64,000 nt of DNA, taken from NCBI GenBank assembly GCA_965219345.1, contig OZ244732.1:1440001-1504000 (forward strand). The letters run 5' to 3'. The position numbers and the translations under genes were made by a program. The notes beneath the pieces were generated by a model. The model saw only the letters and a list, made by a program, of their open reading frames with translations. It did not search any database and was not told the origin of the DNA. Position 1 is the first letter of the stretch. The number at the start of each line of letters is the position of its first letter. Below, piece by piece: positions 8,839 through 62,056 of the stretch. The DNA is from Nitrosopumilus sp. (lineage in GTDB: Archaea > Thermoproteota > Nitrososphaeria > Nitrososphaerales > Nitrosopumilaceae).

Positions 8839-8934
8839 GGACAGAACACAGATACAGTCACAGTCTGTGGATGACAGCCAATGAGTGCTACTGCAGCAGA
8901 TAAGGACAGGACACAGATATAGTCACAGTCTGTG
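8839..8934. repeat. 31-bp direct repeat with 34-bp spacer
   Basis: GGACAG(A/G)ACACAGATA(C/T)AGTCACAGTCTGTG at 8839-8869 and 8904-8934. Confidence 0.9.
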
Positions 8935-11441: not shown

Positions 11442-12821
11442 CTAGATACTGCAGGTTGCAGTCGTAGTTATGGTCTGCGTCAGCTGACCTGTAAAGGTAT
11501 TAGAGATCTCACCAATTTTAACCTGCAGATATTGGAAAAATAAATTAAAGCCAGGTGACAAATTATCTGCAAAATCAGCGTCAATTTCAGACATTGGGAT
11601 TTTGTCCTCGTATGCAAAGTTTACAATATGAGAGTACCTTGTCTGCCCTACATCCATGATTGGCTCATCATTACTGTTCATCCAGTCAGTTGCAGATACG
11701 TCCACATCAACAACACCGGTGCCAGTATTGTTTATTTGAAGTGGCTTTGCATCCGAAGTATCGCCATATGCCAGGCTGCCAAAGTCCAGATCACCGGATA
11801 CGCTGGCCGAGCATACTGGAACATCGGCGCCAGAGGCATCCAGCGTGACGTTAATCATCTTTCTTGCAATCTCGTTTTGGGACTCTACGATGACGCCATC
11901 TACAACGGTACCGTAGGGCAGGCCGACAGTCATATTGTATAAAAAGAAGTCGTTACTAAACACGCCCCTGATGTTGTACTCGGTGCCATATAATGCAAAT
12001 GATGTATTATCCAGATTCCCATCCTGATCCGCGTTTAATGTTATGGGCAGTCCGCTATCTGTCGTCTCAGGAAGGTCAAGTCCGACTCTTGCATTACTTA
12101 CAAAGGGCTCAAAGGAGGGAAATGGAAAGGAGAAATTCGGAGGTTGCTTACCATACAGGTCTTCAATTTTATAAAGCACGACTACGCCGGAACTGTTGGA
12201 GAACTTTGTAAAGTCATCCCTGAACGTTACGGATGGCTTTTCACCTACCGTAATATCTACGGGTATGGTTCTAGTTTCTCCGGTAACAAGACAGGCCGCA
12301 GATCTGGCATCACCGGTATAGGTGAACTCTTTTATGACAATGTCAAACGTATCGGTACCGGTATACGTGGCACCAGGGATGTAGTCAAACTCTGCAAGCA
12401 TTGTGGGGTCGTGGCCAAAGTCGTTCGTATCACAGGTTATGGCAAGTCTAGTGCCATTATTAAAATCGTACGGTCTCATAGGTTCTCCGGATGCCACAAG
12501 ACTGCCGCCCTGTATGGTATTCAAAGAGTCAGGAAACACGGCAATCCAGGGACTTCCAGTGACATTATAACCAATAGCATTATGAACAAGTCTAGATTGG
12601 TCTGGTAACGTGGATGGTGTGCTTAACAGTACTCTTGTCAGTTCCAAGTCATGGGCAATCGTACCATATTCGACATCGTATCTCAGCGTTGGAACAACCA
12701 CCACATCGGCATCGGTGCCTGACTGGCCATACGCATAGTAGCCTCCTGCAGTCATTGTTGCTGTTATCGCTACCGCCATCAGGATCGCCGCAACAGTGCC
12801 GTCTCTCTTCTTTAGTGTCAC
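11442..12821 (-). CDS. secreted/surface protein paralogue 3
   Basis: 459 aa; closely similar to 2587-3966 with clustered variable patches. Confidence 0.85.
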   Translation of the reverse strand: MTLKKRDGTVAAILMAVAITATMTAGGYYAYGQSGTDADVVVVPTLRYDVEYGTIAHDLELTRVLLSTPSTLPDQSRLVHNAIGYNVTGSPWIAVFPDSLNTIQGGSLVASGEPMRPYDFNNGTRLAITCDTNDFGHDPTMLAEFDYIPGATYTGTDTFDIVIKEFTYTGDARSAACLVTGETRTIPVDITVGEKPSVTFRDDFTKFSNSSGVVVLYKIEDLYGKQPPNFSFPFPSFEPFVSNARVGLDLPETTDSGLPITLNADQDGNLDNTSFALYGTEYNIRGVFSNDFFLYNMTVGLPYGTVVDGVIVESQNEIARKMINVTLDASGADVPVCSASVSGDLDFGSLAYGDTSDAKPLQINNTGTGVVDVDVSATDWMNSNDEPIMDVGQTRYSHIVNFAYEDKIPMSEIDADFADNLSPGFNLFFQYLQVKIGEISNTFTGQLTQTITTTATCSI

Positions 12822-43611: not shown

Positions 43612-44997
43612 TTGAACACTCATTTTGACCGCTATTCTTTTATCCGGCTATGTAATCGTAGATTATTGAATTTTAGCAATAAACTGACAATTCCAGTCAT
43701 TGTGGTTGCAGCATTGGTTCTGTTGGGGCTGGCAGCTTTGTCCATGGTGGTCATGCCGTACTCTGCAACTGACAGCCCGCAGACTGAGCCTGCGGCAACT
43801 CTATACGACCCCGCTGTTTCAGTTTCAGACATCAAGACAAATTCTGGCAACATGACAGAACATGCTGCAATTCCCAAAGACATTGTCACGGGCAACAACG
43901 ACTTTGCAGTAGACTTTTACAGGCAGATATCAGACAACGACAACAACATCTTCTTCTCACCTACAAGCATGTACATGGCATTCTCCATGCTATACGAGGG
44001 AGCGCGTGAAAATACGGCACAGCAGATTCAGCAGGTCTTCGGATTTGATCCCAACGAGGCCCTGCGTCACAACGCCACTGCGCACATAATGGCATCTGTC
44101 AATCAGGACGACCCGCATGTAACGCTTAACCTGGCAAATGCCATCTGGATTGCCGACTGGTTTGCCCCGTACGACTCATACACTGACATAATACGCAACA
44201 CATACCTTGCAAGTGCGGAAAAGGTCGATTTTATGGATAAGAATGACGGCATAAAGAGGATAAACAAATGGGCATCAGAGAACACTCAGGGCAAGATTGA
44301 CAAAGTAATCATAAAAAAAGATGTCAACAAGGACACCGCAATGGTGATCAACAGCGCCATATACTTCAAGGGAACGTGGCTGACGCAGTTTCCTGCAGAG
44401 GACACAAAGAAATCCGACTTTTACGGTAACGGTGCTGAGAGTACAAGCACAGACTTTATGAACGTGCATAACATGTTTGACTATTCCAGCATGGATGGTG
44501 TCCAGGTGCTCAGGATGCCGTACGACGGGGGCCGACTCTCGATGCTGATCCTGCTGCCGCACGACGCAGACGGGATACGGCAGCTTGAAGAGACTCTATC
44601 AGCAGGGCAGATAGAGCGATGGATGGCAGGCCTGAGAAACCAGGAAGTCACAGTGTCGGTTCCAAAGTTTGAGACCCGTGTAAATTATAAACTGAATGAG
44701 TTACTCATTGCCATGGGCATGGAAGACGCCTTTAACCCACGCAGTGCCAACCTGACTGGCATAGCAAAGGTGGAACCGGACAGAAATCTGTACGTTGACA
44801 AGGCATCTCAGGACGCATACGTAAAGGTAAACGAGGAGGGAACAGAGGCCGCAGCTGTGACTACCATAGTGGTTATAGCAGAGAGTCTGCCACCCCCACC
44901 ACCAAGATTTATCGCAGATCATCCATTCATCTTTATCATACAGGACGATGAGAACGGCACCATCCTGTTCATGGGAAGGGTGTCAGACCCGTCATAG
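43612..44997 (+). CDS. secreted or membrane-anchored serpin
   Basis: NIFFSP, IYFKGTW, NEEGTEAAA hinge, FIADHPFIF; true start probably near 43667. Confidence 0.96.
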   Translation: MNTHFDRYSFIRLCNRRLLNFSNKLTIPVIVVAALVLLGLAALSMVVMPYSATDSPQTEPAATLYDPAVSVSDIKTNSGNMTEHAAIPKDIVTGNNDFAVDFYRQISDNDNNIFFSPTSMYMAFSMLYEGARENTAQQIQQVFGFDPNEALRHNATAHIMASVNQDDPHVTLNLANAIWIADWFAPYDSYTDIIRNTYLASAEKVDFMDKNDGIKRINKWASENTQGKIDKVIIKKDVNKDTAMVINSAIYFKGTWLTQFPAEDTKKSDFYGNGAESTSTDFMNVHNMFDYSSMDGVQVLRMPYDGGRLSMLILLPHDADGIRQLEETLSAGQIERWMAGLRNQEVTVSVPKFETRVNYKLNELLIAMGMEDAFNPRSANLTGIAKVEPDRNLYVDKASQDAYVKVNEEGTEAAAVTTIVVIAESLPPPPPRFIADHPFIFIIQDDENGTILFMGRVSDPS

Positions 44998-45336: not shown

Positions 45337-46362
45337 TCAGCTCATGATTCTGTGTGCGGTATTTTCCATGTTTGTTAGCATGTACCAGATTATCTCAAGC
45401 ATCTGCCTTGCAGCAGCTGCTATCCTTGCCTTTTGTTTTCCTCTCCTTTTTGCAATTCTCAAGTAAAATGATTCCATCCTTGGATCAAATCGTATCGTAG
45501 TATTTGCAGCCTCTACCTTGCATTGCGCAACCATGCAGAACCCCGTTTTGTTATTCCGCCTCCTTTTTGTGTCTTCCCCACTGTCCCTGTGCGATGGTGC
45601 AAGTCCCGCATATGAGACGAGTTTCTCTGCTGTTGCAAATCTGTTAATGTCAGCTATCTCTGAGATTATTGTCAGTGCCGTGACATAGCTTATTCCAGGG
45701 ATTGTCATGACTAACCTTGTTCTTTCATCCTCGTTGCTAATTGTAGCAATTTTTGTCTCAAATGTGCCAATCTGTTTTTGATTCATATTGATATTTTCAA
45801 GATATGCATCCATTGCCATCCTGTCAACTTCGGTCAGATTGATTTCATGCAGCCATCCGTTCCTTTCTGTGAGAAGGTCTTTATTGTCGGTTGGGTGTAA
45901 TCGTATTTTGCAAGTATTGCATAAATCATGTTTTTGTGTTTTGAGACACTTTGTACACGATTCAGTCTTGTTCTTACCAGACCGCAGATCCCGGTAGTAT
46001 TTTTCTGGCACAAATGACTCATACACCATCATGTCCGATCTTAGCAGGTCCGCCAATACGTCTGAATCAAGCTTGTCGTTTTTGAGTTTTGCCTGTGCTA
46101 TTATCTTGGTCTTTGCAGGGTGTGCAAGAACGGTGTCAATGCCGTTATCCTCTAATGTGTCATGCAGTCTAATCCAATAGTTGGCAGTTGATTCACACGC
46201 AGCCTGTATGTCTTTACCATATGTCTTTTTGATGTGTTTGATAAAACCCATCATTCCATGTGTGGTGTTCTCAAAGCTTGACTGTTCTAGCTTTTTTCTA
46301 GTATCTTTTTTTATTGTTGCAACGCAGTTTTTCTTATGAACGTCAATTCCTATGCTGATCAT
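45337..46362 (-). mobile_element. IS110-family recombinase, degenerate
   Basis: IGIDVHK, CEST, KNDKLD, YAGLAP..RDSG; internal compensating frameshifts; Shine-Dalgarno AAAGGAGGTG upstream. Confidence 0.88.
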
Positions 46363-46728
46363 GTTATCACCTCCTTTCTGATCAAATTGCCTGATAAAGC
46401 GGAATGCTCCCATTCACCATCATCATCTGTGTGTGGTATTTTGTTTTCCGCTCACTTTGAGTCAGTCTGTCAAACGCCCTTGTACATGACAGTAACCCTT
46501 CGACTCTCAGGCCCAATAGTAACAATACATCACAGGATATAGAAAAGATTTCGCATAACGTCTGTCAACTTGATGAGGTTTGACCGGGATTTTTCTCGGT
46601 GTCAACTTGCCACAAATAAAATAAAATTGTATCTTGTATTTCAACATCAGTCATTGTGCTTTTAACCAATGGTACTCAAATGATACTATTCTTAGATAGT
46701 CTTCAAGTATCGTGGTTTTGGGAATAGT

Positions 46729-47278: not shown

Positions 47279-47634
47279 GGTTCTGTGTAATCTTCGGTAC
47301 TTGAGAAATATGGATCTTCTAAGGATTCATTCAGTAGTCTTGTTTAGTGAGGCATTTTGTATGATCGTCTTCCATTTGTTCTTACCGTCTACTTCAATTA
47401 GTGAGGCTTGAGCAGGGGTCTTGCCTTTCTTTAACTCAATTTTATTTTTGGATTCTGTTGCAACCCCAACACTATCGTATCCACGATATTCCATTCTTTT
47501 TAATCCCTTTACAATGATGGGCGCGGCAATCTTCTTTCCGTAGTAACCAATAATTGAACACATAGCTATCCTCCTTGATATTTTGGGGTTATTTACTGAT
47601 AAGCCTATTTTTTTGATTCTTCTGTTGAAGAACC
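47279..47634 (-). mobile_element. IS6 right-end fragment fused to the 5' end of glmS
   Basis: 47279-47429 matches the reverse complement of about 11150-11300; 47430-47563 encodes [23 protein letters not shown]; possible second end AGAACC at 47629-47634. Confidence 0.85.
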
Positions 47635-47749: not shown

Positions 47750-47823
47750 TTTATATATATGAGCATTAACTACCATTTTTTGTGAGCATCAACAGAATAA
47801 CGGGGGGGGGGGGGTGTGTGTGA
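47750..47823 (+). promoter_or_regulatory. TATA box, candidate leaderless GTG and G13 slippage tract
   Basis: TTTATATA at 47750, GTG at 47782, G13 at 47802-47814, in-frame TGA at 47821. Confidence 0.7.
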
Positions 47824-50800
47824 AAATAAAGAGATGGAGAGAATTTCCTTTGTTATTTTAATTTCCACGCTGATGTTGGCCTCTTTGTCCATTGTTCCGG
47901 CACATGCGGCGGAGCACCCGACAATCATCGCAGCTTCTGTGACCTCGGCTACCAGCATAGTCCTGACGTACAGCGAGAACGTTGACGTCAACGCCACGGA
48001 CGGCGCAGGATTTGGCCTCTCTGACGGGGGAAAAGTGACGGCAAACACCGATCCCGCGGGTTCGGGCAACACCATAACCCTTACGGTCTCCGGCATTACC
48101 AACACATCCGATACTCCGGATGTGACTTATATCGAATCTGATGGCACCGTGGCAGACGGCGCATCAAACCCGGCAGCGAGCCAGATCTTTACCGGCACAG
48201 TAGATGATGCGCCGCCAACCGTGTCCTCCATTGCAACTTCCAGTGCATCGACAATTGATATCGTACTGTCCGAGAACGTCACAGTAAACGGTGCGGCACC
48301 AGGAGACTTTGTGCTGTCTGGCACCATATCCACAGACCCGACCGTGACTGGAATCACGGCCGCTGCAGACACGGTCACCCTTTCCCTTAACGATACGCTT
48401 GATGGCGATGATGTCATCAGACTGGCATACACCAGAACCATGAGCAGCATAGATGACATTTCTCTCACGTCCTTTGTCGACTCTTTCTCAGTGAAGGCAA
48501 TAGAAGACGAAGATCCGCGAAGCCTGGCCTTCTCTGGTGACGGATATAAGATATTTATTTTGGATGGTATTGCCGATGCCGTACACGAGTACACGCTAAC
48601 CGCCCCATTTGACATATCCAATGCCGCCCCTGTCAGCTCTTTCTCAGTGGCATCAGAAGACGAAGATCCGCGAGGCCTGGCCTTCTCTGGCGACGGAACA
48701 AAGATGTTTGTCGTGGGTACTTTTGACGATGGTGATGTACACGAGTACGCGCTAGCCGTCCCCTTTAACATATCCGATGCCACCTCTGCCAATTCCTTCT
48801 CAACGAGATCACAAGACTCATACCCGCGAAGCCTGGCCTTCTCTGGCGACGGAACAAAGATGTTTGTCGTAGATAGTATTGGTAAGGACGTAAACGAGTA
48901 CACGCTAACCGCCCCATTTGACATATCCAATGCCACCTTTGTCGACTCTTTCTCACTGGTGCCATCAAACGTAACATTCCCACAGGGTTTGACCTTCTCT
49001 AATGACGGAACAAGGATGTTTGTTGTAGATAGTAATAGTAACGATGTACACGAGTACGCGCTAACCGCCCCCTTTGACGTATCGACCGCCACCTTTGTCG
49101 ACTCTTTCTCACTGGTGCCATCAAACATAGCATTCCCACAGGGTTTGACCTTCTCTAATGACGGAACAAGGATGTTTGTTACGGATTTTGATACCTCTGA
49201 CGTATACGAGTACGCGTTATCAAAGCCATTTACGCTATTCCCGCAGCCAAACTCCCTTGACAGCTTTGTGACAACCCTGGTCACAAACAACATTGTTCCG
49301 CCAACAATCACCGCGGCTGCCGTGACTTCCCTTACCGAGATAGTCCTGACGTACAGCGAGAACGTTGACGTCACAACCACAAACGGCGAAGGATTCACCC
49401 TATCTGTCGGAACGGTGACGGCAAACACCGATCCCGCGGGTTCGGACGACACCATAACCCTTACCGTCTCTGGCATCACAACATCCGATGCTCCAGTTAT
49501 AACTTACATCGCTCCACCTGGCACCGTGGTTGACGCGGAATCAAACCCGGCAGCAGACCAGACCTTTACCGGTACAACCGATGACGCGCCGCCAATCGTG
49601 TTCTCCATTGCAACTTCCAACATGTCGGCAATTGACATCGTGCTGTCCGAAGACGTCACAGTCAGCTCCGTGGCACCGGAAGACTTTGTGCTGTCCAGCA
49701 CCATATCCACAGACCCTACCGTGACCGGAATCACGGCCCTTAACGACACGGTCACCCTTTCCCTTAACGACACGCTTGCCCATAATGATGTCATCAGCCT
49801 GGCATACAACAAAGCCACGGGCAGCATAGATGACATTCTTGCTCCTCCGTCCTTTGTCGGCTCTTTCTCGGTGGCTTCACAAGACAACACTCCGACAGGC
49901 CTGGCCTTCTCTGATGACGGAACAAAGATGTTTGTCGTAGGTCTTACCGGCACTGACATAAACGAGTACGCGCTAACCGCCCCATTTGACATATCCAATG
50001 CCGACTTTGTCGACTCTTTCTCAGTAGGCTCACAAGAGGCATTCCCGGCAGACCTGGCCTTCTCTGCTAACGGAACAAAGATGTTTGTCATAGGTCTTGC
50101 CGGCAATGACATAAACAAGTACACGCTAACCGCCCCATTTGACGTATCCACTGCCTCCTTTGTCGACTCTTTCCAAGTATCTCAAACGGATATATCCCCG
50201 CGGAGCCTGGCCTTCTCCAACGACGGAACAAAGATGTTTGTTCTGGATATTTTCGGCGGTGACAGTTACGTAAACGAGTACACGCTAAATGGCCCCTTTG
50301 ACGTATCCACTTCCTCCTTTGTCGACTCTTTCTCAGTGGCATCACACGCACCATCCCCGCAGGGTCTGGCTTTCTCTGATGACGGAACCAAGATGTTTGT
50401 TTCGTCTTCTGACAACGATGCCGTAATCAAGTACGCATTAACCGCCCCCTTTGACGTGTCCACTGCCTCCTTTGTCGACTCTTTCTCCGTGTCATCACAG
50501 GGATTCGCCCTGACAGCCCTGGCCTTCTCTGATGACGGAACAAGGATGTTTGTTCTGGAAAATGACAGCAATGCCGTATACGAGTACGCGCTGTCAGAGC
50601 CATTTACGCTATTCCCGCAGCCAAACTCGCTTGCCAGCTTTGCGGCAATGTCGGTCACAAACAACATTGTACCGCTAGACACCGTTCCACCAACAATCAC
50701 CGCGGCTGCCGTGACCTCCCTTACCGAGATAGTCCTGACGTACAGCGAGGACATAGACGTCACAACCACAAACGGCGCGGGATTCACCCTATCTGTCGGA

Positions 50801-53800
50801 ACGGTGTCGGCAACCTCTGATCCCGCGGGTTCGGACGACACCATAACCCTTACCGTCTCTGGCATCACAACATCCGATACTCCAAACGTGACTTACACCG
50901 CATCCGACGGCTCCGTAGCAGACAGCGCATTAAACCAGGCAGCGAGCCAGACCTTTACCGGCACAACCGATAACGCGCCGCCAACCGTGCTCTCCATTGT
51001 AACTAACGACACATCAACAATTAACATCGTGCTGTCCGAAAACGTCACAATAAACGGTGCGGCACCGGAAGACTTTGCGCTGTCCAGCACCATATCCACA
51101 GACCCGGCCGTGACCGGAATCACCGCTGTTACAAACAACACGGTAGCCCTTGCCCTTGACGATACGCTTGACAGCAATGATGTCATCCTACTGGCATACA
51201 CCAAGACCACGGGCAGCATAGATGACATCCCTCTTCCGCCCCTTGACGGCTCCTTCCCAGTAGATATGCAAGACTCGGAATCAACTGGCCTGGCCTTCTC
51301 TAATGACGGAACAAGGATGTTTGTAGTGAGTACTGGTAGTGATAGCGATAACGATGCCGTACACCAGTACACACTAACCGCCGCCTTTGACGTGTCCACT
51401 GCTACCTTTGTCGACTCTTTCTCAGTAGGTTCACAAGACACATTCCCGTCAGGCCTGGCCTTCTCTGGTGACGGAACAAAGATGTTTGTTGTGGGTAGTT
51501 TCGACAATAACATAAACGAGTACACACTAACCACCGCCTTTGACGTGTCCACTGCCACCTCTGCCAACTCCTTCTCAGTATCCTCACAAGACATACTCCC
51601 GCTAGACATGGCCTTCTCTGCTGACGGAACAAAGATGTTTGTCTTGGGCGATGCTGGCGATGACATAAACGAGTACACGCTATCCGCCCCCTTTGACGTA
51701 TCGAATGTCGCCGGCACATCGGATGTCACCTTTGTCGACTCTTTCCCAGTGGCATCACAAGACAGATCCACGCAGGGCCTAACCTTCTCTGCTGACGGAA
51801 CGAGGATGTTTGTAGTGGGTAGTATCAACGGTGCCGTATACGGGTACGCACTAACCGCCGCCTTTGACGTGTCCACCGCCACCTTTGTCGACTCTTTCTC
51901 AGTGACATCACAAGACAGATTCCCGCGGGGCCTGGCCTTCTCTGCTGACGGAACGAGGATATTTGTCTTGGGTAGTGACAGCAAGAACGTACACCAGTAC
52001 GCGCTATCTGAACCATTTACGCTATTCCAACAGCCAAACTCCCTTGCCAGCTTTGCGGCAATGTCAGTCACAAACAACATTCCATCAGACACCACCCCGC
52101 CAACAATCACCGCAGCTGCCGTGACCTCCCTTACCGAGATAACCCTGACGTACAGCGAGAACATAGACGTCACAACCACAAACGGCGAAGGATTTACCCT
52201 ATCTGTCGGACAAGTGACGGCAAATACTGATCCCGACAATTCGGACGACACCATAACCCTTACCATCTCCGGCATCACCGCATCCGATGCTCCAGACGTG
52301 ATTTACACCGAGTCTGATGGCTCCGTGACAGACGGCGCATCAAACCCTGCAGCGAGCCAGACCTTTACCGGCACCACCCCGCTGCCGGATACTATTCCAC
52401 CAACAATCACCGCAGCTGCCGTGACCTCCCTTACCGAGATACTCCTGACGTACAGCGAGAACATAGACGTCACAACCACAAACGGCGAAGGATTCATCCT
52501 ATTTGTCGAAGGAACGGTGTCGGCAAACTCTGATCCCGACAATTCGGGCAACACCATAACACTTACCGTCTCCGGCATCACCGCATCCGATGCTCCAAAC
52601 GTGATTTACACCGAATCTGATGGCTCCGTGACAGACGGCGCATCAAACCCGGCAGCGAGCCAGACCTTTACCGGCACCACCCCGCTGCCGGACACCGTTC
52701 CACCAACAATCACCGCAGCTGCCGTGACCTCGGCTACCAGCATAACCCTGACGTACAGCGAGAACATAGACGTCACAACCACAAACGGCCAAGGATTCTC
52801 CCTCTCCGTCGGACAGGTGACGACAAACACCGATCCCGCCGGTTCGGCAGACACCATAACCCTTACGGTCTCCGGCATCCCCTCTACCTCTCATAGACCG
52901 GATGTGACTTACGCCGCATCTGATGGCACCGTGACAGACAGCGCGTCAAACCCGGCAGCAAGCCAGACCTTTACCGGCACAGTAGATGATGCGCCGCCAA
53001 CCGTGTCTTCCATCGAAACTTCCAGCACATCAACAAATGCAATTGATGTCGTGCTGTCCGAAGACGTTACAGTCAACTCTGTAGAATCCAGGGACTTTGT
53101 ACTGTCTGGCACCATATCCACAAACCCGGCCTTGACCGCAGTCACGGTAGCTGCCGACACGCTCACCCTTCACCTTAACGCTGCGCTTGCTCATGATGAT
53201 GTCATCAATCTGGCATACACCAAAACCACGGGCAGCATAGATGACATTGCTCTCCCGTCCTTTGTCGACTCTTTCCCAGTGGCTTCACGGGATACATTCC
53301 CGTCAGGCCTGGCCTTCTCCAACGACGGAACAAAGATGTTTGTCGCAGGTGATAGCACCGATTCCGTACACCAGCACGTGCTGTCCGCCCCCTTTGACGT
53401 ATCCACTTCCAACTTTGTCCGCTCTTTCTCAATAAACGCACAAAGCACATCCCCGCAGGGTCTGGCCTTCTCCAACGACGGAACAAAGATGTTTGTCACA
53501 GATAGTTTCAAAAGTACCGTAAACGAGTACACGCTGTCCGCCCCCTTTAACATATCCAATGCCACCTTTGTCCAATCTACCTCCCTGGCTCTAAATGCTT
53601 TACAGCCACACGGTCTGGCCTTCTCTACTAACGGAACACTGATGTTTGTCGCAAGTGATTTCAACGATAGCGTATACAATTACTTGCTGTCCACCCCCTT
53701 TGATCTGTCGTCTTACATCCCTATCGACTCTTTCTCAGTGGCATCACAAGATGTAGATCCACGGCACCTGGCCTTCTCCAACGACGGAACAAAGATGTTT

Positions 53801-56800
53801 GTCACAGGTGATGCTAGCGATAGCGTACACGAGTACACACTATCCCGCCCCTTTGACACACTCACTGCCGACTTTGACAGCTCCTTCTCCGTGTTCTCAC
53901 AGGATACATCCCCGACAGGCCTGGCCTTCTCCAATGACGGAATAAGGATGTTTGTCGTGGGTGATTTCGGCAATGACATAAACGAGTACATACTGCCAAA
54001 GCCATTTGCGCTATTCCCACAGCCAAACTCCCTTGCCAGCTTTGCGGCAACCTTGGTCACAAACAACGTTGCACCGACACCGCCACCCGATGACATTGAT
54101 CCCTCGATAGATACCACCCTGCCAACAATCACCGCAGCTGCCGTGACCTCCCTTACCGAGATACTCCTGACGTACAGCGAGGACATAGACGTCACAACCA
54201 CGGACGGCGAAGGATTCGCCCTTTCCACCGGAACGGTGCATGCAAACACCGATCCCGCCGGTACGGCAGACACCATAACACTTACCGTCTCCGGCATTAC
54301 CGCATCCGATGCTCCAGACGTGATTTACACCGAGTCTGATGGCAACGTGGAAGATACCGCGTCAAACGAGGCAGCGAGCCAGACCTTTACCGGCACCACC
54401 CAGCTGCCGGACACTATTCCACCAACAATCACCGCAGCTTCCGTGACCTCGGCTACCAGCATAACCCTGACGTACAGCGAGAACATAGACGTCACAACCA
54501 CAAACGGCGCGGGATTCTCCCTTTCCACCGGGCAAGTGTCGGCAAACACCGATCCCGCCGGTTCGGACGACACCATAACCCTTACCGTCTCTGGCATCAC
54601 AACATCCGATGCTCCAGCTATAACTTACATCGCTCCACCTGGCACCGTGGTTGACGCGGAATCAAACCCGGCAGCAGACCAGACCTTTACCGGCACAACC
54701 GATGACGCGCCTCCAACCGTGTCCTCCATTGCAACTGCCAGCACATCAACAATTAACATCGTGCTGTCCGAAAACGTCACAATAAACGGTGCGGCACCGG
54801 AAGACTTTGTGCTGTCCAGCACCATATCCACAGACCCGGCCGTGACCGGAATCACCGCTGTTACAAACAACACGGTAGCCCTTGCCCTTGACGATACGCT
54901 TGACAGCAATGATGCCATCCTCCTGGCATACACCAAGACCACGGGCAGCATAGATGACATCCCTCTTCCGCCCCTTCTCAGCTCCTTCCCAGTAGGTATA
55001 CAAGGCTCGGGATCAAACGGCATGGCCTTCTCTAATGACGGAACAAGGATGTTTGTAGTGAGTAGTGGTAGTGGTAGCGATAACGATGCCGTACACCAGT
55101 ACACACTAACCGCCCCCTTTGACGTATCCACTGCCACCTTTGTCGACTCTTTCTCAGTGGCATCACAAGACACAGTACCGCAAGGCCTGGCCTTCTCTGG
55201 TGACGGAACAAAGATGTTTGTTGTGGGTGGTTTCGACAATAACATAAACGAGTACACACTATCCGCCGCCTTTGACGTGTCCACTGCCACCTCTGCCAAC
55301 TCCTTCTCAGTGGCATCACAAGACACAGCCCCGCTAGACATGGCCTTCTCTGCTGACGGAACAAAGATGTTTGTCTTGGGCGGTGCTGGCGATGCCGTAT
55401 ACGAGTACACGCTAACCGCCCCCTTTGACGTATCGAATGTCGCCGGCACATCAGATGTCACCTTTGTCGACTCTTTCCCAGTGGCATCAGAAGACACAGC
55501 CCCGACAGGCCTGGCCTTCTCTGGTAACGGAACTAGGATGTTCGTTGTAGGTAATTTTAACGATGCCGTATACGAGTACGCACTAACCGCCCCCTTTGAC
55601 GTGTCCACTGCCACCTCTGCCAACTCCTTCTCAGTATCCTCACAGGACCAATCCCCGACAGGCCTGGCCCTCTCTGCTGACGGAACGAGGATATTTGTCT
55701 TGGGTGATAACAGCGAGAACGTACACCAGTACGCGCTATCTGAACCATTTACGTTATTCCTACAGCCAAACTCCCTTGCCAGCTTTGCGGCAATGTCAGT
55801 CACAAACAACATTGCATCACCACCCGCTGAAATTGATCCCTCGATAGATACCACCCCACCAACAATCATCGCAGCTGCCGTGACCTCCCTTACCGAGATA
55901 CTCCTGACGTACAGCGAGGACATAGACGTCACAACCACGGACGGCACGGGATTCGCCCTCTCCGTCGGAACGGTGCATGCAAACACCGATCCCGCCGGTT
56001 CGAACGACACCATAACCCTTACCGTCTCCGGCATCGCCGCATCCTATACTCCAGCTATAAGTTATACCACATCTGATGGCACCGTGACAGATACCGCGTC
56101 AAACCAGGCAGCAAACCAGGTCTTTGCCGGCACCACCCCGCTACCCGATACCACCCCACCAACAATCACCGCAGCTGCCGTGACCTCGGCTACCAGCATA
56201 GTCCTGACGTACAGCGAGAACATAGACGTCACAACTACAGACGGCGAAGGATTCGCCCTCTCTGATGGAGGAACGGTGTCGGCAAACTCTGATCCCGCCA
56301 GTACGGACGACACCATAACCCTTACCGTCTCTGGCATCACAGCATCCGATGCTCCAAACGTGATTTACACCGAGTCTGATGGCTCCGTGACAGACAGCGC
56401 ATCAAACCCGGCAGCGAACCAGACCTTTACCGGCACCACCCCGCTGCCGGACACCGTTCCACCGGAAATCACCGCAGCTGCCGTGACCTCGGCTATCAGC
56501 ATAGTCCTGACGTACAGCGAGAACATAGACGTCAGCACCACAAACGGCCAAGGATTCTCCCTCTCCGTCGGACAGGTGACGACAAACACCGATCCCGCCG
56601 GTTCGGCAGACACCATAACCCTTACGGTCTCCGGCATCCCCTCTACCTCTCATAGACCGGATGTGACTTACGCCGCATCTGATGGCACCGTGACAGACAG
56701 CGCGTCAAACCCGGCAGCAAGCCAGACCTTTACCGGCACAACCGATGACGCGCCGCCAACGGTATCTTCCATCGAAACTTCCAGCACATCAACAAATGCA

Positions 56801-59800
56801 ATTGACGTCGTGCTGTCCGAAAACGTTACAATAAACGGTGCGACACCGGAAGACTTTGCGCTGTCCGGCACCCTATCCACATACCAGCGCGTGACCGGAA
56901 TCACGGCCCTTGCCGACACGGTAACCCTTACCCTCAATGATACGCTTGACAGTGATGATGTCATCAGCCTGGCATACACCAAAGGCACTGGCAGCATAGA
57001 TGACATTTCTCTCACGTCCTTTGTTGATTCTTTCTCAACAGTTTTCCAAGATATATCCCCACAGGGTTTGGCATTCTCTGGTGACGGAACAAAGATGTTT
57101 GTCGCAGGTGGTGATACCGATACCGTATACGAGTACGCACTAGCTGTCCCCTTTGACGTGTCCACTGTCCGCTACAATGGCAACTCCTTCTCAGTGGCTT
57201 CACAGGACACATCCCCACAGGGTTTGGCCTTCTCTAATGACGGTACCAGGATGTTTGTCGCAGGTAATTTCGGCAATGACGTAAACGAGTACACGCTAAC
57301 CGCCCCCTTTGACGTGTCCACTGTCACCTTTGTCGACTCTTTCTCAGTGGCTTCACAAGACGAATCCCCACAGGGTTTGGCCTTCTCCAATGACGGTACT
57401 AGGATGTTTGTCGCAGGTCGCGTTAGCAATGCCGTATACGAGTACGCGCTGACCGCCCCCTTTGACGTGTCCACTGCCAGCTATGGCAGCTCCTTCCCAG
57501 TAGGTTCACAGGACACATCCCCACAGGGCCTGGCCTTCTCCAACGACGGAACAAGGATGTTTGTCGCAGGTGATATTGGCAATGACGTAAACGAGTACAC
57601 ACTAACCTCCCCCTTTGACGTATCCACTGCCACCTTTGTCGACTTTTTCTCACTGGCGACATCAAGCGCATCATCCCCGCAGGGTTTGGCCTTCTCCAAT
57701 GACGGTACCAGGATGTTTGTTGCGGATTTTGATACCTTTGGCGTACACGAGTACGCGCTGTCAAAGCCATTTGCGCTATTCCCACAGCCAAACTCGCTTG
57801 CCAGCTTTGCGGCAACCTTGGTCACAAACAACATTGCATCACCACCCGCTGAAATTGATCCCTCGATAGATACCACCCCACCAACAATCACCGCAGCTGC
57901 CGTGACCTCCCTTACCGAGATACTCCTGACATACAGCGAGAACATAGACGTCACAACCACGGACGGCACGGGATTCGCCCTTTCCACCGGAACGGTGCAT
58001 GCAAACACCGATCCCGCCAGTACGGCAGACACCATAACCCTTACCGTCTCCGGCATCGCCGCATCCGATACTCCAGCTATAAGTTATACCACATCTGATG
58101 GCACCGTGACAGATACCGCGTCAAACCAGGCAGCAAACCAGGTCTTTGCCGGCACCACGGCGCTGCCGGACACCATTCCGCCAACAATCACCGCAGCTGC
58201 CGTGACCTCCCTTACCGAGATACTCCTGACGTACAGCGAGAACATAGACGTCACAACCACGGACGGCGCAGGATTCACCCTCTCTGACGGAGGAACGGTG
58301 TCGGCAAACTCTGATCCCGCCAGTACGGACGACACCATAACCCTTACCGTCTCTGGTATCACCACAGCATCCGATGCTCCAAACGTGATTTACACCGAGT
58401 CTGATGGCTCCGTGACAGATACCGCGTCAAACCCGGCAGCAAACCAGACCTTTACCGGCACCACCCCGCTGCCGGACACTGTTCCACCGGAGATCACCGC
58501 AGCTGCCGTGACCTCGGCTACCAGCATAGTCCTGACGTACAGCGAGAACATAGACGTCACAACCACAGACGGCGCAGGATTCACCCTCTCTGACGGACAA
58601 GTGACGGCAAACACCGATCCCGCCGGTTCGGACGACACCATAACGCTTGCCGTCTCCGGCATCACAGCATTCGATGCTCCAAACGTGATTTACACCGAGT
58701 CTGATGGCTCCGTGACAGATACCGCGTCAAACCAGGCCGAAGACCAGACCTTTGCCGGCACCACGGCGCCGCCGGACACTATTCCACCAACAATCACCGC
58801 AGCTGCCGTGACCTCCCTTACCGAGATACTCCTGACATACAGCGAGAACATTGACGTCAGCACCACGAACGGCGCAGGATTCGCCCTCTCTGACGGAGGA
58901 ACAGTGTCGGCAAACACCGATCCCGACAATTCGGGCAACACCATAATCCTTACCGTCTCTGGCATCACCACAGCTGATACTCCAGCCATAACCTACACCG
59001 CTCCACCTGGCACCGTGGTTGACAACGCGTCAAACCCGGCAGCAGACCAGACCTTTGCCGGCACCACCCCGCTACCCGATACTATTCCACCAAGAATCAC
59101 CGCAGCTGCCGTGACCTCCCTTACCGAGATACTCCTGACGTACAGCGAGAACATTGACGTCACAGCCACGAACGGCGCAGGATTCGCCCTCTCTGACGGA
59201 GGAACAGTGTCGGCAAACACCGATCCCGACAATTCGGGCAACACCATAATCCTTACCGTCTCTGGCATCACCACAGCTGATACTCCAGCCATAACCTACA
59301 CCGCTCCACCTGGCACCGTGGTTGACAACGCGTCAAACCCGGCAGCAGACCAGACCTTTGCCGGCACCACCCCGCTACCCGATACTATTCCACCAAGAAT
59401 CACCGCAGCTGCCGTGACCTCCCTTACCGAGATACTCCTGACATACAGCGAGAACATAGACGTCACAGCCACGAACGGCGAAGGATTCGCCCTCTCTGAC
59501 GGAGGAACAGTGTCGGCAAACACCGATCCCGCCGGTACGGGCAACACCATAATCCTTACCGTCTCTGGTATCACCACAGCATCCGATGCTCCAAACGTGA
59601 TTTACACCGAGTCTGACGGCACCGTGACAGATACCGCGTCAAACCCTGCAGCGAGCCAGACCTTTGCCGGCACCACCCCGCTACCCGATACTATTCCACC
59701 AACAATCACCGCAGCTGCCGTGACCTCCCTTACCGAGATAGTCCTGACGTACAGCGAGAACATAGACGTCACAGCCACAAACGGCCAAGGATTCGCCCTC

Positions 59801-62056
59801 TCTGACGAAGGAACGGTGTCGGCAAACACCGATCCCGACAATTCGGGCAACACCATAATCCTTACCGTCTCCGGCATTACCGACACATCCGATGCTCCAA
59901 ACGTGATTTACACCGAGTCTGACGGCACCGTGACAGATACCGCATCAAACCCTGCAGCGAGCCAGACCTTTACCGGCACCACCCCGCTGCCGGACACTAT
60001 TCCACCAACAATCACTGCGGCTTCTATGACCTCGGCTACCAACATGACCCTGACATACAGCGAGAACATAGACGTCACAACCACGAACGGCGCAGGATTC
60101 GCCCTCTCTGACGGAGGAACAGTGTCGGCAAACACCGATCCCGACAATTCGGGCAACACCATAATCCTTACCGTCTCCGGCATTACCGACACATCCGATA
60201 CTCCAGCCATCACCTATACCGCTCCACCTGGCACCGTGGTTGACAACGCGTCAAACCAGGCAGCAAACCAGACCTTTACCGGTACAACCGATAACGCGCC
60301 GCCAACCGTATCCTCCATTGCAACTGCCGGCACATCAACAATTGATATCGTGCTGTCCGAAGACGTCACAATAAACGGTGCGGCACCCGAAGACTTTGCG
60401 CTGTCCGGCACCATATCCACGGACCCAGTCGTAACCGGAATCACCGCCATTGCCGCCGCTGCTGCCAACACGGTCACCCTTGCCCTTGACGATACGCTTG
60501 ATCATGACGATGTCATCCTCCTGGCATACACCAAGACCACGGGCAGCATAGATGACATTCCTGCCGCTTCTGTCATCCTTGACACCTCCTTCTCCGTGTC
60601 CTCACAGAGCGACTTCCCGACAGGCCTAACCTTCTCTGCCAACGGAACAAAGATGTTTGTTCTAAGTGATGGTGACGATGCCGTATACGAGTACGCGCTA
60701 ACCGCCCCCTTCGACGTGTCTTCCGCCACCTTTACCAGATCTGACGTGTCTTCCGCCACCTTTACCAACTCTTCCTCAATGCCACAGGACACACTCCCGA
60801 CAGGCCTAACCTTCTCTGCCAACGGAACAAGGATGTTTGTCGTAGGTGATAGTCAAAACGTAATCGAGTACACGCTAACCGCCCCCTTTGACCTGTCTGC
60901 TGCTGTCACCTTTGCCAGCTTCTTCTCAGTGGCATCGCAAGTACAATCCCCGACAGGCCTAACCTTCTCTGCCAACGGAACAAAGATGTTTGTCGTGGAT
61001 GACAATGACGATGCCGTATACGAGTACACATTAACCGCCCCCTTTGACGTATCCACTGCCGTCCCTGCCGGCTCCTTCTCCATATCCTCACAGGACACAT
61101 TGCCATTTGGCATAACCTTCTCCGATGACGGTACCAGGATGTTTGTCGTAGGTAATTCTAACGGCAAGGTAAACGAGTACGCATTAACCACCGCCTTTGC
61201 CGTATCCACTGCCTCCTTTGCCGGCTCTTTTTCAACAGTTCCACAAGAGACGTTCCCATATGACCTGGCCTTCTCCGGTGACGGTACCACGATGTTCGTC
61301 GTAGGCATTAATAGCGATGCCGTATACCAGTACGCGCTGCCCGAACCGTTTACGCTATTCCCACAGCCAAACTCGCTTGCCAGCTTTGCGGCAGCCCCAG
61401 TCACAAACAACAACATTGCACCGCCCGTTGCGGATGATACGGAGGAACCAGAACCTGAACCGGAAAGAAAGCCCGAAAAGAGTGGTAGAGGCGGTGGTGG
61501 CGGCGGCCGTACCGGCGTCAGTCCAGCCGGAGGAGGAGAACCCCTGTCCAACATTGAGCTTTACGGCGTTTCATGGAACTGTGAGACGGGCCTAATCAGA
61601 ATAATAACCGGTGATGACTCGCCTACGCTGTCGGTATCCGTCAGAACCTCCATTGGCGGCCTGGCCGAGGCCAGCCTGTCCGATGAAAGAATACCCGGCA
61701 GCAAGGTATTCACATCCCATATGGGGCCTTCCGAGACATACCTTGGCATACTGCTGGTGGACATAGCGGGACGGGACAGCAACATTAGAAACGAAAGCAT
61801 CAGCATAAAACAGTGCGTTGGCGAGAAGACATATGATGGTGATGGTGATGGTGATGGTGATGGTGATGGTGACGCATCCGATACGCCAAAAAAGTCCCAG
61901 TCCAGTAGTAGCAGCAGCAGCGCATCCAAAGGCGACATGGAATGCAAGCCGGGCTTTACGCTGGTCAAGAACCTGAGAGATGATCTTGCCTGCCTCCTTG
62001 ACCGCTCGGTACAGCCGCTGATGGAGCGCGGCTGGGTAGAATCAATAGTCGGATAA
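47816..62056 (+). CDS. giant repetitive surface protein/adhesin (Ig/SwmB-like repeats and seven beta-propeller modules)
   Basis: 4746 aa; signal peptide MERISF..PAHA; about 19 PTITAAAVTS repeats; 7 x 5 blades with GLAFSxDGTKMFV; C-terminal C..G..L...AC...LMERGW motif. Confidence 0.93.
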   Translation: MCENKEMERISFVILISTLMLASLSIVPAHAAEHPTIIAASVTSATSIVLTYSENVDVNATDGAGFGLSDGGKVTANTDPAGSGNTITLTVSGITNTSDTPDVTYIESDGTVADGASNPAASQIFTGTVDDAPPTVSSIATSSASTIDIVLSENVTVNGAAPGDFVLSGTISTDPTVTGITAAADTVTLSLNDTLDGDDVIRLAYTRTMSSIDDISLTSFVDSFSVKAIEDEDPRSLAFSGDGYKIFILDGIADAVHEYTLTAPFDISNAAPVSSFSVASEDEDPRGLAFSGDGTKMFVVGTFDDGDVHEYALAVPFNISDATSANSFSTRSQDSYPRSLAFSGDGTKMFVVDSIGKDVNEYTLTAPFDISNATFVDSFSLVPSNVTFPQGLTFSNDGTRMFVVDSNSNDVHEYALTAPFDVSTATFVDSFSLVPSNIAFPQGLTFSNDGTRMFVTDFDTSDVYEYALSKPFTLFPQPNSLDSFVTTLVTNNIVPPTITAAAVTSLTEIVLTYSENVDVTTTNGEGFTLSVGTVTANTDPAGSDDTITLTVSGITTSDAPVITYIAPPGTVVDAESNPAADQTFTGTTDDAPPIVFSIATSNMSAIDIVLSEDVTVSSVAPEDFVLSSTISTDPTVTGITALNDTVTLSLNDTLAHNDVISLAYNKATGSIDDILAPPSFVGSFSVASQDNTPTGLAFSDDGTKMFVVGLTGTDINEYALTAPFDISNADFVDSFSVGSQEAFPADLAFSANGTKMFVIGLAGNDINKYTLTAPFDVSTASFVDSFQVSQTDISPRSLAFSNDGTKMFVLDIFGGDSYVNEYTLNGPFDVSTSSFVDSFSVASHAPSPQGLAFSDDGTKMFVSSSDNDAVIKYALTAPFDVSTASFVDSFSVSSQGFALTALAFSDDGTRMFVLENDSNAVYEYALSEPFTLFPQPNSLASFAAMSVTNNIVPLDTVPPTITAAAVTSLTEIVLTYSEDIDVTTTNGAGFTLSVGTVSATSDPAGSDDTITLTVSGITTSDTPNVTYTASDGSVADSALNQAASQTFTGTTDNAPPTVLSIVTNDTSTINIVLSENVTINGAAPEDFALSSTISTDPAVTGITAVTNNTVALALDDTLDSNDVILLAYTKTTGSIDDIPLPPLDGSFPVDMQDSESTGLAFSNDGTRMFVVSTGSDSDNDAVHQYTLTAAFDVSTATFVDSFSVGSQDTFPSGLAFSGDGTKMFVVGSFDNNINEYTLTTAFDVSTATSANSFSVSSQDILPLDMAFSADGTKMFVLGDAGDDINEYTLSAPFDVSNVAGTSDVTFVDSFPVASQDRSTQGLTFSADGTRMFVVGSINGAVYGYALTAAFDVSTATFVDSFSVTSQDRFPRGLAFSADGTRIFVLGSDSKNVHQYALSEPFTLFQQPNSLASFAAMSVTNNIPSDTTPPTITAAAVTSLTEITLTYSENIDVTTTNGEGFTLSVGQVTANTDPDNSDDTITLTISGITASDAPDVIYTESDGSVTDGASNPAASQTFTGTTPLPDTIPPTITAAAVTSLTEILLTYSENIDVTTTNGEGFILFVEGTVSANSDPDNSGNTITLTVSGITASDAPNVIYTESDGSVTDGASNPAASQTFTGTTPLPDTVPPTITAAAVTSATSITLTYSENIDVTTTNGQGFSLSVGQVTTNTDPAGSADTITLTVSGIPSTSHRPDVTYAASDGTVTDSASNPAASQTFTGTVDDAPPTVSSIETSSTSTNAIDVVLSEDVTVNSVESRDFVLSGTISTNPALTAVTVAADTLTLHLNAALAHDDVINLAYTKTTGSIDDIALPSFVDSFPVASRDTFPSGLAFSNDGTKMFVAGDSTDSVHQHVLSAPFDVSTSNFVRSFSINAQSTSPQGLAFSNDGTKMFVTDSFKSTVNEYTLSAPFNISNATFVQSTSLALNALQPHGLAFSTNGTLMFVASDFNDSVYNYLLSTPFDLSSYIPIDSFSVASQDVDPRHLAFSNDGTKMFVTGDASDSVHEYTLSRPFDTLTADFDSSFSVFSQDTSPTGLAFSNDGIRMFVVGDFGNDINEYILPKPFALFPQPNSLASFAATLVTNNVAPTPPPDDIDPSIDTTLPTITAAAVTSLTEILLTYSEDIDVTTTDGEGFALSTGTVHANTDPAGTADTITLTVSGITASDAPDVIYTESDGNVEDTASNEAASQTFTGTTQLPDTIPPTITAASVTSATSITLTYSENIDVTTTNGAGFSLSTGQVSANTDPAGSDDTITLTVSGITTSDAPAITYIAPPGTVVDAESNPAADQTFTGTTDDAPPTVSSIATASTSTINIVLSENVTINGAAPEDFVLSSTISTDPAVTGITAVTNNTVALALDDTLDSNDAILLAYTKTTGSIDDIPLPPLLSSFPVGIQGSGSNGMAFSNDGTRMFVVSSGSGSDNDAVHQYTLTAPFDVSTATFVDSFSVASQDTVPQGLAFSGDGTKMFVVGGFDNNINEYTLSAAFDVSTATSANSFSVASQDTAPLDMAFSADGTKMFVLGGAGDAVYEYTLTAPFDVSNVAGTSDVTFVDSFPVASEDTAPTGLAFSGNGTRMFVVGNFNDAVYEYALTAPFDVSTATSANSFSVSSQDQSPTGLALSADGTRIFVLGDNSENVHQYALSEPFTLFLQPNSLASFAAMSVTNNIASPPAEIDPSIDTTPPTIIAAAVTSLTEILLTYSEDIDVTTTDGTGFALSVGTVHANTDPAGSNDTITLTVSGIAASYTPAISYTTSDGTVTDTASNQAANQVFAGTTPLPDTTPPTITAAAVTSATSIVLTYSENIDVTTTDGEGFALSDGGTVSANSDPASTDDTITLTVSGITASDAPNVIYTESDGSVTDSASNPAANQTFTGTTPLPDTVPPEITAAAVTSAISIVLTYSENIDVSTTNGQGFSLSVGQVTTNTDPAGSADTITLTVSGIPSTSHRPDVTYAASDGTVTDSASNPAASQTFTGTTDDAPPTVSSIETSSTSTNAIDVVLSENVTINGATPEDFALSGTLSTYQRVTGITALADTVTLTLNDTLDSDDVISLAYTKGTGSIDDISLTSFVDSFSTVFQDISPQGLAFSGDGTKMFVAGGDTDTVYEYALAVPFDVSTVRYNGNSFSVASQDTSPQGLAFSNDGTRMFVAGNFGNDVNEYTLTAPFDVSTVTFVDSFSVASQDESPQGLAFSNDGTRMFVAGRVSNAVYEYALTAPFDVSTASYGSSFPVGSQDTSPQGLAFSNDGTRMFVAGDIGNDVNEYTLTSPFDVSTATFVDFFSLATSSASSPQGLAFSNDGTRMFVADFDTFGVHEYALSKPFALFPQPNSLASFAATLVTNNIASPPAEIDPSIDTTPPTITAAAVTSLTEILLTYSENIDVTTTDGTGFALSTGTVHANTDPASTADTITLTVSGIAASDTPAISYTTSDGTVTDTASNQAANQVFAGTTALPDTIPPTITAAAVTSLTEILLTYSENIDVTTTDGAGFTLSDGGTVSANSDPASTDDTITLTVSGITTASDAPNVIYTESDGSVTDTASNPAANQTFTGTTPLPDTVPPEITAAAVTSATSIVLTYSENIDVTTTDGAGFTLSDGQVTANTDPAGSDDTITLAVSGITAFDAPNVIYTESDGSVTDTASNQAEDQTFAGTTAPPDTIPPTITAAAVTSLTEILLTYSENIDVSTTNGAGFALSDGGTVSANTDPDNSGNTIILTVSGITTADTPAITYTAPPGTVVDNASNPAADQTFAGTTPLPDTIPPRITAAAVTSLTEILLTYSENIDVTATNGAGFALSDGGTVSANTDPDNSGNTIILTVSGITTADTPAITYTAPPGTVVDNASNPAADQTFAGTTPLPDTIPPRITAAAVTSLTEILLTYSENIDVTATNGEGFALSDGGTVSANTDPAGTGNTIILTVSGITTASDAPNVIYTESDGTVTDTASNPAASQTFAGTTPLPDTIPPTITAAAVTSLTEIVLTYSENIDVTATNGQGFALSDEGTVSANTDPDNSGNTIILTVSGITDTSDAPNVIYTESDGTVTDTASNPAASQTFTGTTPLPDTIPPTITAASMTSATNMTLTYSENIDVTTTNGAGFALSDGGTVSANTDPDNSGNTIILTVSGITDTSDTPAITYTAPPGTVVDNASNQAANQTFTGTTDNAPPTVSSIATAGTSTIDIVLSEDVTINGAAPEDFALSGTISTDPVVTGITAIAAAAANTVTLALDDTLDHDDVILLAYTKTTGSIDDIPAASVILDTSFSVSSQSDFPTGLTFSANGTKMFVLSDGDDAVYEYALTAPFDVSSATFTRSDVSSATFTNSSSMPQDTLPTGLTFSANGTRMFVVGDSQNVIEYTLTAPFDLSAAVTFASFFSVASQVQSPTGLTFSANGTKMFVVDDNDDAVYEYTLTAPFDVSTAVPAGSFSISSQDTLPFGITFSDDGTRMFVVGNSNGKVNEYALTTAFAVSTASFAGSFSTVPQETFPYDLAFSGDGTTMFVVGINSDAVYQYALPEPFTLFPQPNSLASFAAAPVTNNNIAPPVADDTEEPEPEPERKPEKSGRGGGGGGRTGVSPAGGGEPLSNIELYGVSWNCETGLIRIITGDDSPTLSVSVRTSIGGLAEASLSDERIPGSKVFTSHMGPSETYLGILLVDIAGRDSNIRNESISIKQCVGEKTYDGDGDGDGDGDGDASDTPKKSQSSSSSSSASKGDMECKPGFTLVKNLRDDLACLLDRSVQPLMERGWVESIVG
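61834..61872 (+). repeat. (GATGGT)n microsatellite encoding poly(Asp-Gly)
   Basis: GATGGT x6 followed by GAC. Confidence 0.9.

Follow-up and report, generated by a model that had tools for sequence, protein, structure and literature searches.

A length-variable G/TG repeat in a predicted leaderless short frame as a candidate phase-variation switch of a giant surface-protein gene in Nitrosopumilus sp.

We analysed a stretch of 64,000 nucleotides from Nitrosopumilus sp. (hereafter the window; contig OZ244732.1 of assembly GCA_965219345.1, positions 1,440,001 to 1,504,000), in which a giant gene carries a G13(TG)4 repeat at its 5' end. The features are collected in Table 1; coordinates are those of the window unless a C1 prefix marks them as genome coordinates. 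The product of the giant open reading frame (ORF) combines a signal peptide with Ig-like and beta-propeller repeats, as is expected of a surface or interaction determinant, and it is a putative adhesin. Its promoter has a TATA element that begins at -32 or -30 relative to GTG 47782, the first codon of a short frame that contains the repeat. The block that is kept in all four copies in this genome begins at about 47736, about 14 nt upstream of the TATA element at 47750. The giant frame is closed by TAA 47798-800 directly before the tract and is open thereafter, so that its mechanical start is GTG 47816 (4746 aa), in the same frame as ATG 47834. From GTG 47782 to ATG 47834 the distance is 52 nt; therefore, loss of one G or gain of two (G12 or G15) would fuse the short frame to the giant frame. 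An earlier note on this DNA, made from the letters alone, had reported the G13 tract, the 8-mer TTTATATA 32 nt before GTG 47782, the stop at 47821 and the fusion by G12 or G15, and the sequence bears out all of these.

Table 1. Coordinates of the features discussed in the text.
Feature	Position	Strand	Remarks
TATA box of the giant-gene promoter, TTTATATATA	47750..47759	+	read from the sequence; 8-mer TTTATATA at 47750-57
Short upstream frame	47782..47823	+	GTG 47782, 13 codons, stop TGA 47821-23; predicted leaderless start and predicted transcription start site
Homopolymeric G13	47802..47814	+	read from the sequence
(TG)4 dinucleotide repeat	47815..47822	+	forms the TGA stop with the next A
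A-rich 10-nt spacer	47824..47833	+	from the upstream stop to ATG 47834; without Shine-Dalgarno motif
Giant ORF (window giant gene)	47834..62056	+	4740 aa from ATG; Ig-like (SWM_repeat, Big_5) repeats and beta-propeller (SGL) modules; G13(TG)4, repeat 21 nt
Signal peptide from ATG 47834	47834..47908	+	opens MERISFVILISTLMLASLSIVPAHA; n-region MER, hydrophobic core, AHA then AEHP
C-terminal domain, ~175 aa	61529..62053	+	6 tblastn matches, 81-100% identity, in six secreted proteins of the genome
Truncated 5' copy of glmS	47327..47563	-	duplicated along with the promoter cassette in 3/4 copies
Poly-C tract, C14	3978-3991	-	ORF 2587-3966
Poly-C tract, C15	10282-10296	-	ORF 8888-10270
Poly-C tract, C12	12833-12844	-	ORF 11442-12821
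Giant-gene copy	C1:77520-92297	-	G14(TG)4, repeat 22 nt
Giant-gene copy	C1:185983-201594	-	G11(TG)5, repeat 21 nt
Giant-gene copy	C1:908830-914235	+	G14(TG)5, repeat 24 nt
Fifth cassette copy, G326 (also L127)			another species of the genus, 14.5-kb contig; G11(TG)2, repeat 15 nt; flanks almost unchanged
Tract loci in or beside genes of phase-variable classes	C1:419354-420829, 434922-435818, 438846-439712, 458434-460761, 1607639-1608502, 746388, 1234620, 1725754		gene classes given in the text

The G13 tract is an uninterrupted repeat far beyond chance length, as is typical of contingency loci that mutate by slipped-strand mispairing. The window holds ten matches to G12, which derive from four tracts, whereas 100 shuffles gave an expectation of 0.00. 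G runs of 6-11 nt are absent from the window, and there is one run each of 12, 13, 14 and 15 nt. The repeat also varies in length, as such a locus should. Four giant genes of the genome share promoter, short frame, repeat and signal peptide almost base for base. A fifth cassette, in G326, has one substitution within the short frame (AGC to AGT), which is synonymous there. These five cassettes have five different G/TG combinations in near-identical flanks. Further copies were not found: the upstream flank followed by G8 matched no locus in either metagenome contigs or genome contigs, and the downstream flank matched none in metagenome contigs and one in genome contigs, which is the G326 contig. 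A DNA search for the cassette in 200 other genomes of the family gave one weak 28-nt match only, and protein database searches with near and longer lengths gave no further N-termini of the window type. The copy at 92 kb (C1:92379-92454) and its G326 counterpart (L126) additionally have the first 37 nt of the promoter block, TATA included, in tandem duplicate; the extra copy begins about 85 nt upstream of the functional one.

Additional lengths were seen in contigs of public runs. A form with one G less was present in X2 (depth 80.7 of 508.6, 2 contigs), and a form with two G more in X1 (depth 13.5 of 656, 1 contig). Neither length occurs in any assembled copy, and the other forms in these runs are those expected from the paralogues. 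These contigs break at the tract, cannot be assigned to one of the four copies and perhaps come from the sample of origin; X5 and X6 had no tract coverage. Since the form with one G less has about the depth share of one copy in X2 and is unlisted in X1, real polymorphism is favoured over uniform stutter.

Which start codon belongs to the giant gene can be judged from its family. The signal peptide from ATG 47834 has the hydrophobic core typical of a Sec signal peptide (its cleavage site was placed by the A-x-A rule), and it aligns from residue 1, end to end, with family signal peptides from their start codons. By position, ATG 47834 is therefore the start codon of the family, with the preceding 52 nt as an addition. 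We considered a Shine-Dalgarno-led start as the main route to ATG 47834 and rejected it: the 16S tail of the genome ends ...GGATCACCTCC, and the nearest match before this ATG is the 4-mer GUGA at -14 to -11. Gene callers place the starts of such genes wrongly; for the 908-kb paralogue, the database entry starts at a GTG within the TG repeat.

GTG 47782 has the geometry of a leaderless start. Across 1472 ORFs of the genome, the TATA 8-mer (up to 1 mismatch allowed) is sharply concentrated at -30 relative to the first candidate start, with 36 matches there against about 4 per position elsewhere. This spacing was found before 76 of 804 ATG, 12 of 236 GTG and 30 of 432 TTG starts, against a background of 0.95%. 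As the peak holds for all three start codons, leaderless mRNAs are common in this genome. A TATA element is expected about 25-30 nt upstream of a leaderless start, and the position at -32/-30 before GTG 47782 fits the spacing of the genome. The six family representatives compared all have a GTG start with a TATA element at about -32 to -22. The fifth giant gene of the genome, which has no tract, starts at GTG 1012381 with the N-terminus VNINYKN... and shows leaderless geometry, as do four giant-gene representatives of the sister species G233. Transcription of the window gene would thus be predicted to start at about 47780-47782. In Haloferax, 118 transcripts have native leaderless GUG starts, according to the available part of PMC4983044. 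AGAATAAC, which lies directly before the tract, was considered as a second TATA box and rejected for its 5 mismatches to the consensus.

A frame-dependent switch on a leaderless mRNA, driven by slippage, is well supported by these features of the sequence, and the repeat length probably decides whether ribosomes reach the real start of the giant protein. The reading that we favour, with a preference that is tentative, is that the short frame acts as a repeat-bearing leaderless upstream ORF that gates re-initiation at ATG 47834. The mRNA would begin at the 5'-terminal GUG 47782, the very short frame would hold the repeat, and the giant gene would start at ATG 47834. Replication slippage, with no known mismatch repair, would change G(n) and (TG)(m) and with them the frame of ribosomes loaded at the 5' end. 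Frame arithmetic on the repeat length gives three distinct translational outcomes. When the length is 0 mod 3, as assembled, ribosomes would stop at the UGA 10 nt before AUG 47834, re-initiation would be possible and the gene would be expressible. When it is 1 mod 3, they would read past this AUG and stop about 25 nt inside the gene, the AUG would be occluded and the gene would be OFF. When it is 2 mod 3, they would read straight into the giant ORF and make a protein with a longer n-region of the signal peptide.

The frames of the five cassettes bear on this reading. Four of them share the stop of the short frame, a TGA located 10 nt before the ATG, which they reach with four different G/TG combinations (21, 21, 24 and 15 nt). 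In the fifth (C1:92 kb, 22 nt), the short frame overlaps the ATG and ends only at a TAA, which starts 25 nt into the gene. None of the five has the GTG fused to the giant ORF. This locus, the only one in the read-past frame, is also the only giant gene with internal frame breaks, of which at least two were seen, near 77523 and near 76300-76613. The other three cassette-bearing giant genes of this genome are intact with the C-terminal domain. The earlier note had proposed translational phase variation with the fused frame as the ON state and G13 as OFF. The first part is supported, as the repeat heads a giant gene for a secreted protein, varies in length and comes together with leaderless GTG geometry. 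The second part is not supported: fusion is absent from the five cassettes, a complete, family-aligned signal peptide opens at ATG 47834, and four of the five copies share a stop before it.

A gap of 10 nt between the stop and the ATG lies within about 15 nt, the range in which re-initiation would be expected. Termination-reinitiation in Haloferax volcanii and E. coli likewise allows such a gap, according to the available part of PMC10666635, where the efficiency in Haloferax is 40-60% at 13-14 nt and is lost at 22-23 nt. Re-initiation across the 10-nt gap is therefore plausible. The known upstream partner, however, is a full gene, usually with an overlap of 1-4 nt, whereas here it would be a leaderless frame of 10-14 codons whose stop is set by a hypermutable repeat.

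Several points weigh against re-initiation. Leaderless GUG was poorly used in reporter tests, at 2.6% of AUG, in the part of PMC4983044 at hand, and the re-initiation data are haloarchaeal, not from Nitrososphaeria. The chance that at least four of five loci share any one frame is 0.14, and the five loci are related. The five cassettes share about 99% identity, so that conservation of the ATG is hardly informative on selection. Other genes of the genus have a leaderless start, a few codons, a G tract and then the obligatory rest of the protein, which fits fusion. Assemblies may also have long homopolymers wrong by 1 nt; the fact that most loci of the control families are in frame speaks against such an error being systematic.

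The alternative that survives best is that translation starts only at the leaderless GTG 47782, so that only lengths of 2 mod 3 (of the G12/G15 type) are ON and G13 is OFF. This would be a coding switch of the pilC/Opa type, with the tract in the n-region of an extended signal peptide. It is a close rival of re-initiation, which we consider only somewhat more likely, and several points are in its favour: the geometry at GTG 47782 is that of a leaderless start, no stop interrupts the fused frame, and both additional lengths in the public runs (G12 and G15, with (TG)4) would represent fused alleles. In families of alternative adhesins such as Opa, most members are often OFF. In addition, obligatory fusion occurs in the genus, in giant genes of G233 and in a secreted family and a sulfotransferase of G195. 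In G233, a G11 or G12 tract lies within signal-peptide codons at 10 homologous giant-gene 5' ends, between the hydrophobic core and the A-Y-A cleavage motif, and variable GGT repeats follow it. Because the repeat sits in the part that is cleaved off, its length does not affect the mature protein. Seven of these ten loci are in frame, against one third expected (p = 0.02), and the three that are out of frame have no alternative start. The G195 sulfotransferase (L154) reads MRYFRKTGGGG..., with a leaderless start, a few codons, the G tract and the rest of the protein. In the secreted family of G195 (L141, L148, L150-L153), we observed a leaderless ATG, a hydrophobic segment, G11-14, a near-duplicate second segment without its own Met, and the mature protein; 3/5 assessable loci are in frame, and the start of the sixth is unclear.

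Ten of the 15 loci in the obligatory-fusion families are in frame, and none of the five cassette loci is fused (one-sided Fisher p = 0.016; the loci are related and not independent). The same holds against the other in-gene tracts of the genome, 6/8 of which are in intact frames (p = 0.03, again with related loci). Furthermore, the signal peptide opened by ATG 47834 is complete and canonical, and its start is homologous to that of the family. After fusion, the n-region would contain the acidic stretch ENKE and lack a net positive charge. Three giant ORFs (1801-5203 aa) are intact, although all would be silent if fusion were required. These points lead us to prefer re-initiation at ATG 47834 over a switch that works by fusion only.

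It is also possible that GUG 47782 is not used and that ATG 47834 is reached by internal initiation independent of a Shine-Dalgarno sequence. The tract would then lie in an untranslated leader and would tune expression by its length regardless of frame, through pairing with a C/U-rich small RNA, a GGGGGUG decoy that resembles a Shine-Dalgarno sequence and whose distance varies, a G-quadruplex or polymerase pausing, or would have little effect. ATG 47834 is the homologous start and the frame bias in five loci is not statistically significant, as this alternative would have it. The 3' end of the tract with UG mimics the Shine-Dalgarno core of the 16S tail, 13-19 nt from the AUG depending on (TG)n, and a G-repeat switch in a 5' untranslated region is known in bacteria (PMC8295292, in the part available). 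We nevertheless regard this alternative as unlikely. RNA in 47782-47900 folds no better than shuffles (z = -0.92), and the idea of a structural switch was therefore dropped. A decoy needs only about five G's, so that G11-14 is left unexplained by it. At other loci the coding strand carries poly-C, which speaks against an RNA G-quadruplex as a shared principle, and in a sister species and in other families tracts of this type work through the reading frame.

That the tract has no function, being a neutral by-product of slippage without mismatch repair or an artefact of long reads, is improbable: MutS was not found in any of the 41 genomes of the genus searched, this one included, so that repeats could drift, homopolymers of more than 10 nt are error-prone in long reads and the public runs are kept as contigs only, but the run lengths are bimodal, tracts lie at the 5' ends of secreted-protein genes in three species and at two positions in homologous genes, the gene classes are those typical of phase variation, 21 of 40 other genomes of the genus have no G/C run of at least 11 although they likewise lack MutS, and the in-frame excess in G233 would not be expected of drift.

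The genome as a whole has the signature of phase variation. It consists of 1.91 Mb in 2 contigs with 36% G+C and is 99.5% complete; archaeal amoA is present (E = 1e-117), and a methanogen host was considered and dropped, as no match to McrA was found. Genes of the window include those for methylmalonyl-CoA mutase, family-B DNA polymerase, a serpin and an IS110 transposase. MutS_V, MutL and NucS_C had no match in the genome. Its G/C runs number 539, 66, 15, 4 and 2 for lengths of 5-9 nt, followed by 31 runs of 10-15 nt. Long A/T runs also occur: A11-15 seven times and T10-20 five times, one of which has 20 nt. G/C tracts of 10-12 nt lie in or beside genes for an MBOAT acyltransferase, a sulfotransferase, two GT2 glycosyltransferases, a secreted beta-propeller/CARDB protein and DNA methylases. 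Several of them cluster at 405-460 kb, and two in methylase regions lie at frame junctions. These gene classes are typical of bacterial phase variation. Among the 40 other genomes of the genus that are at least 95% complete, 19 have a G/C run of at least 11, and the tract-rich ones are the larger genomes of 1.9-2.4 Mb. IS5-like transposase genes have G10-12 at the junction of two frames (L131, L133-L135 and L137 in G233, and C1:405776-405786). With G12 (L134) the two frames are joined, and with G11 (L133) they are separate. Production of transposase may itself be phase-variable, judging from these frames.

The three poly-C tracts of the window belong to another system. The earlier note saw the G13 tract as a parallel to the poly-C tracts of 'three paralogues', but those ORFs are three members of a nine-member secreted family of about 460 aa without Pfam match, unrelated to the giant gene, and their poly-C lies upstream of the start codons in the geometry of a promoter spacer. 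In this family, C11-15 is placed between a conserved TATA-like GTTATTTA and a GTG or TTG start, with 11 nt from tract to start. Tract lengths of 11-15 put the TATA-like element at -30 to -34, from the optimum to the edge of leaderless spacing. Because the tract lies between this element and the start, a change in its length would move the 5' end of the transcript relative to the start codon, and poly-C could therefore act as a promoter-spacer switch. Taking both systems together, it is possible, if doubtful, that some Nitrosopumilus lineages have a full set of contingency loci of the bacterial style with mechanisms specific to leaderless mRNAs. For giant surface proteins, a hypermutable repeat in a leaderless mini-ORF would then select among three states (re-initiation, occlusion or fusion), and poly-C between TATA and start would shift the mRNA 5' end onto the start codon or away from it.

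In host-adapted bacteria, phase variation through simple repeats is a textbook strategy, and the repeats of Neisseria pilC and opa sit in signal-peptide codons. The homologues in G233 match this design exactly, with the repeat between the only usable start and the mature protein, which is not the arrangement of the window cassette. Together with the seven loci in frame and three out of frame, this makes the likeness to bacterial contingency loci drawn in the earlier note a sound one; the survey of homologous giant genes for G tracts that it proposed found them in four copies in this genome, one in G326 and 10 in G233. In Neisseria pilC (poly-G, 9-20) and opa (pentamer repeats), a slippage-prone repeat likewise lies near the 5' end of paralogous adhesin genes, each of which switches independently, according to the available part of PMC5953494. 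The window differs from both in that its host is archaeal, with a TATA promoter and a leaderless GUG in place of a Shine-Dalgarno-led start, in that the repeat is upstream of a complete signal peptide that can be started separately, and in that two repeat types (G and TG) stand together. The phasomes of Campylobacter, Helicobacter, Haemophilus and Neisseria share with this genome bimodal homopolymers, the gene classes (glycosyltransferases, sulfotransferase, O-acyltransferase, surface proteins and DNA methylases) and the fact that no mismatch-repair genes were found. Their hosts are pathogenic or commensal bacteria, whereas the present one is an archaeon that oxidises ammonia. In Helicobacter pylori tlpB, a variable G-repeat in the mRNA leader sets the expression level through the small RNA RepG (accessible part of PMC8295292); tlpB needs this partner and acts by length, not by frame. 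Neisseria opc has a variable poly-C within its promoter, like the three tracts of the window (PMC3960869, in part), but in opc it alters the -35/-10 geometry, whereas poly-C in the window lies between a TATA-like element and a leaderless start.

One preprint cites, for archaea, a 1987 paper on simple repeats. In the literature that we found, there was no report of phase variation of this kind in ammonia-oxidising archaea and none of a multi-locus archaeal phasome; the supplements of repeat surveys (PMC2831843, PMC3315296), which may list archaeal tracts, were outside its scope. Neither a leaderless mini-ORF with a repeat-set stop nor a poly-C shift of the 5' end was described in it. A 2025 review, as far as its available part goes, describes genomes with many phase-variable loci as apparently confined to pathogens and leaves archaeal surveys to the future (PMC11868660). 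The genome analysed here shows the complete signature, namely bimodal homopolymers, no known mismatch-repair genes found, and tracts in surface proteins, glycan-modifying enzymes, DNA methylases and transposases. It would give a concrete example of stochastic variation of the cell surface in a nitrifier lineage of global importance, possibly in connection with hosts, viruses or particles, and would let the treatment of upstream frames in leaderless translation be studied in a natural setting. In practice, ON and OFF states of such genes cannot be read from consensus assemblies.

Several features surround the giant gene. The C-terminal domain of about 175 aa, which has no Pfam match, ends all five giant proteins and one tract-bearing protein of 775 aa, and it may be a module for cell-surface anchoring or sorting. 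Directly before it, a perfect TGATGG x 6.5 repeat at 61834-61872 encodes (DG)n. The 775-aa paralogue has a poly-D run at the equivalent position, and (DG)n is a further in-frame variable repeat. The glmS fragment upstream was considered as a divergent target of the TATA element at 47750. This was rejected; the fragment has its own GGAGG 8 nt before its ATG, which is about 190 nt away. An intact glmS is located at C1:201644-203605 and adjoins the giant gene at 201 kb. Directly upstream of the giant-gene locus are the serpin gene (43612-44997, +; Pfam E = 1e-117) and the IS110-family transposase gene (45337-46413, -).

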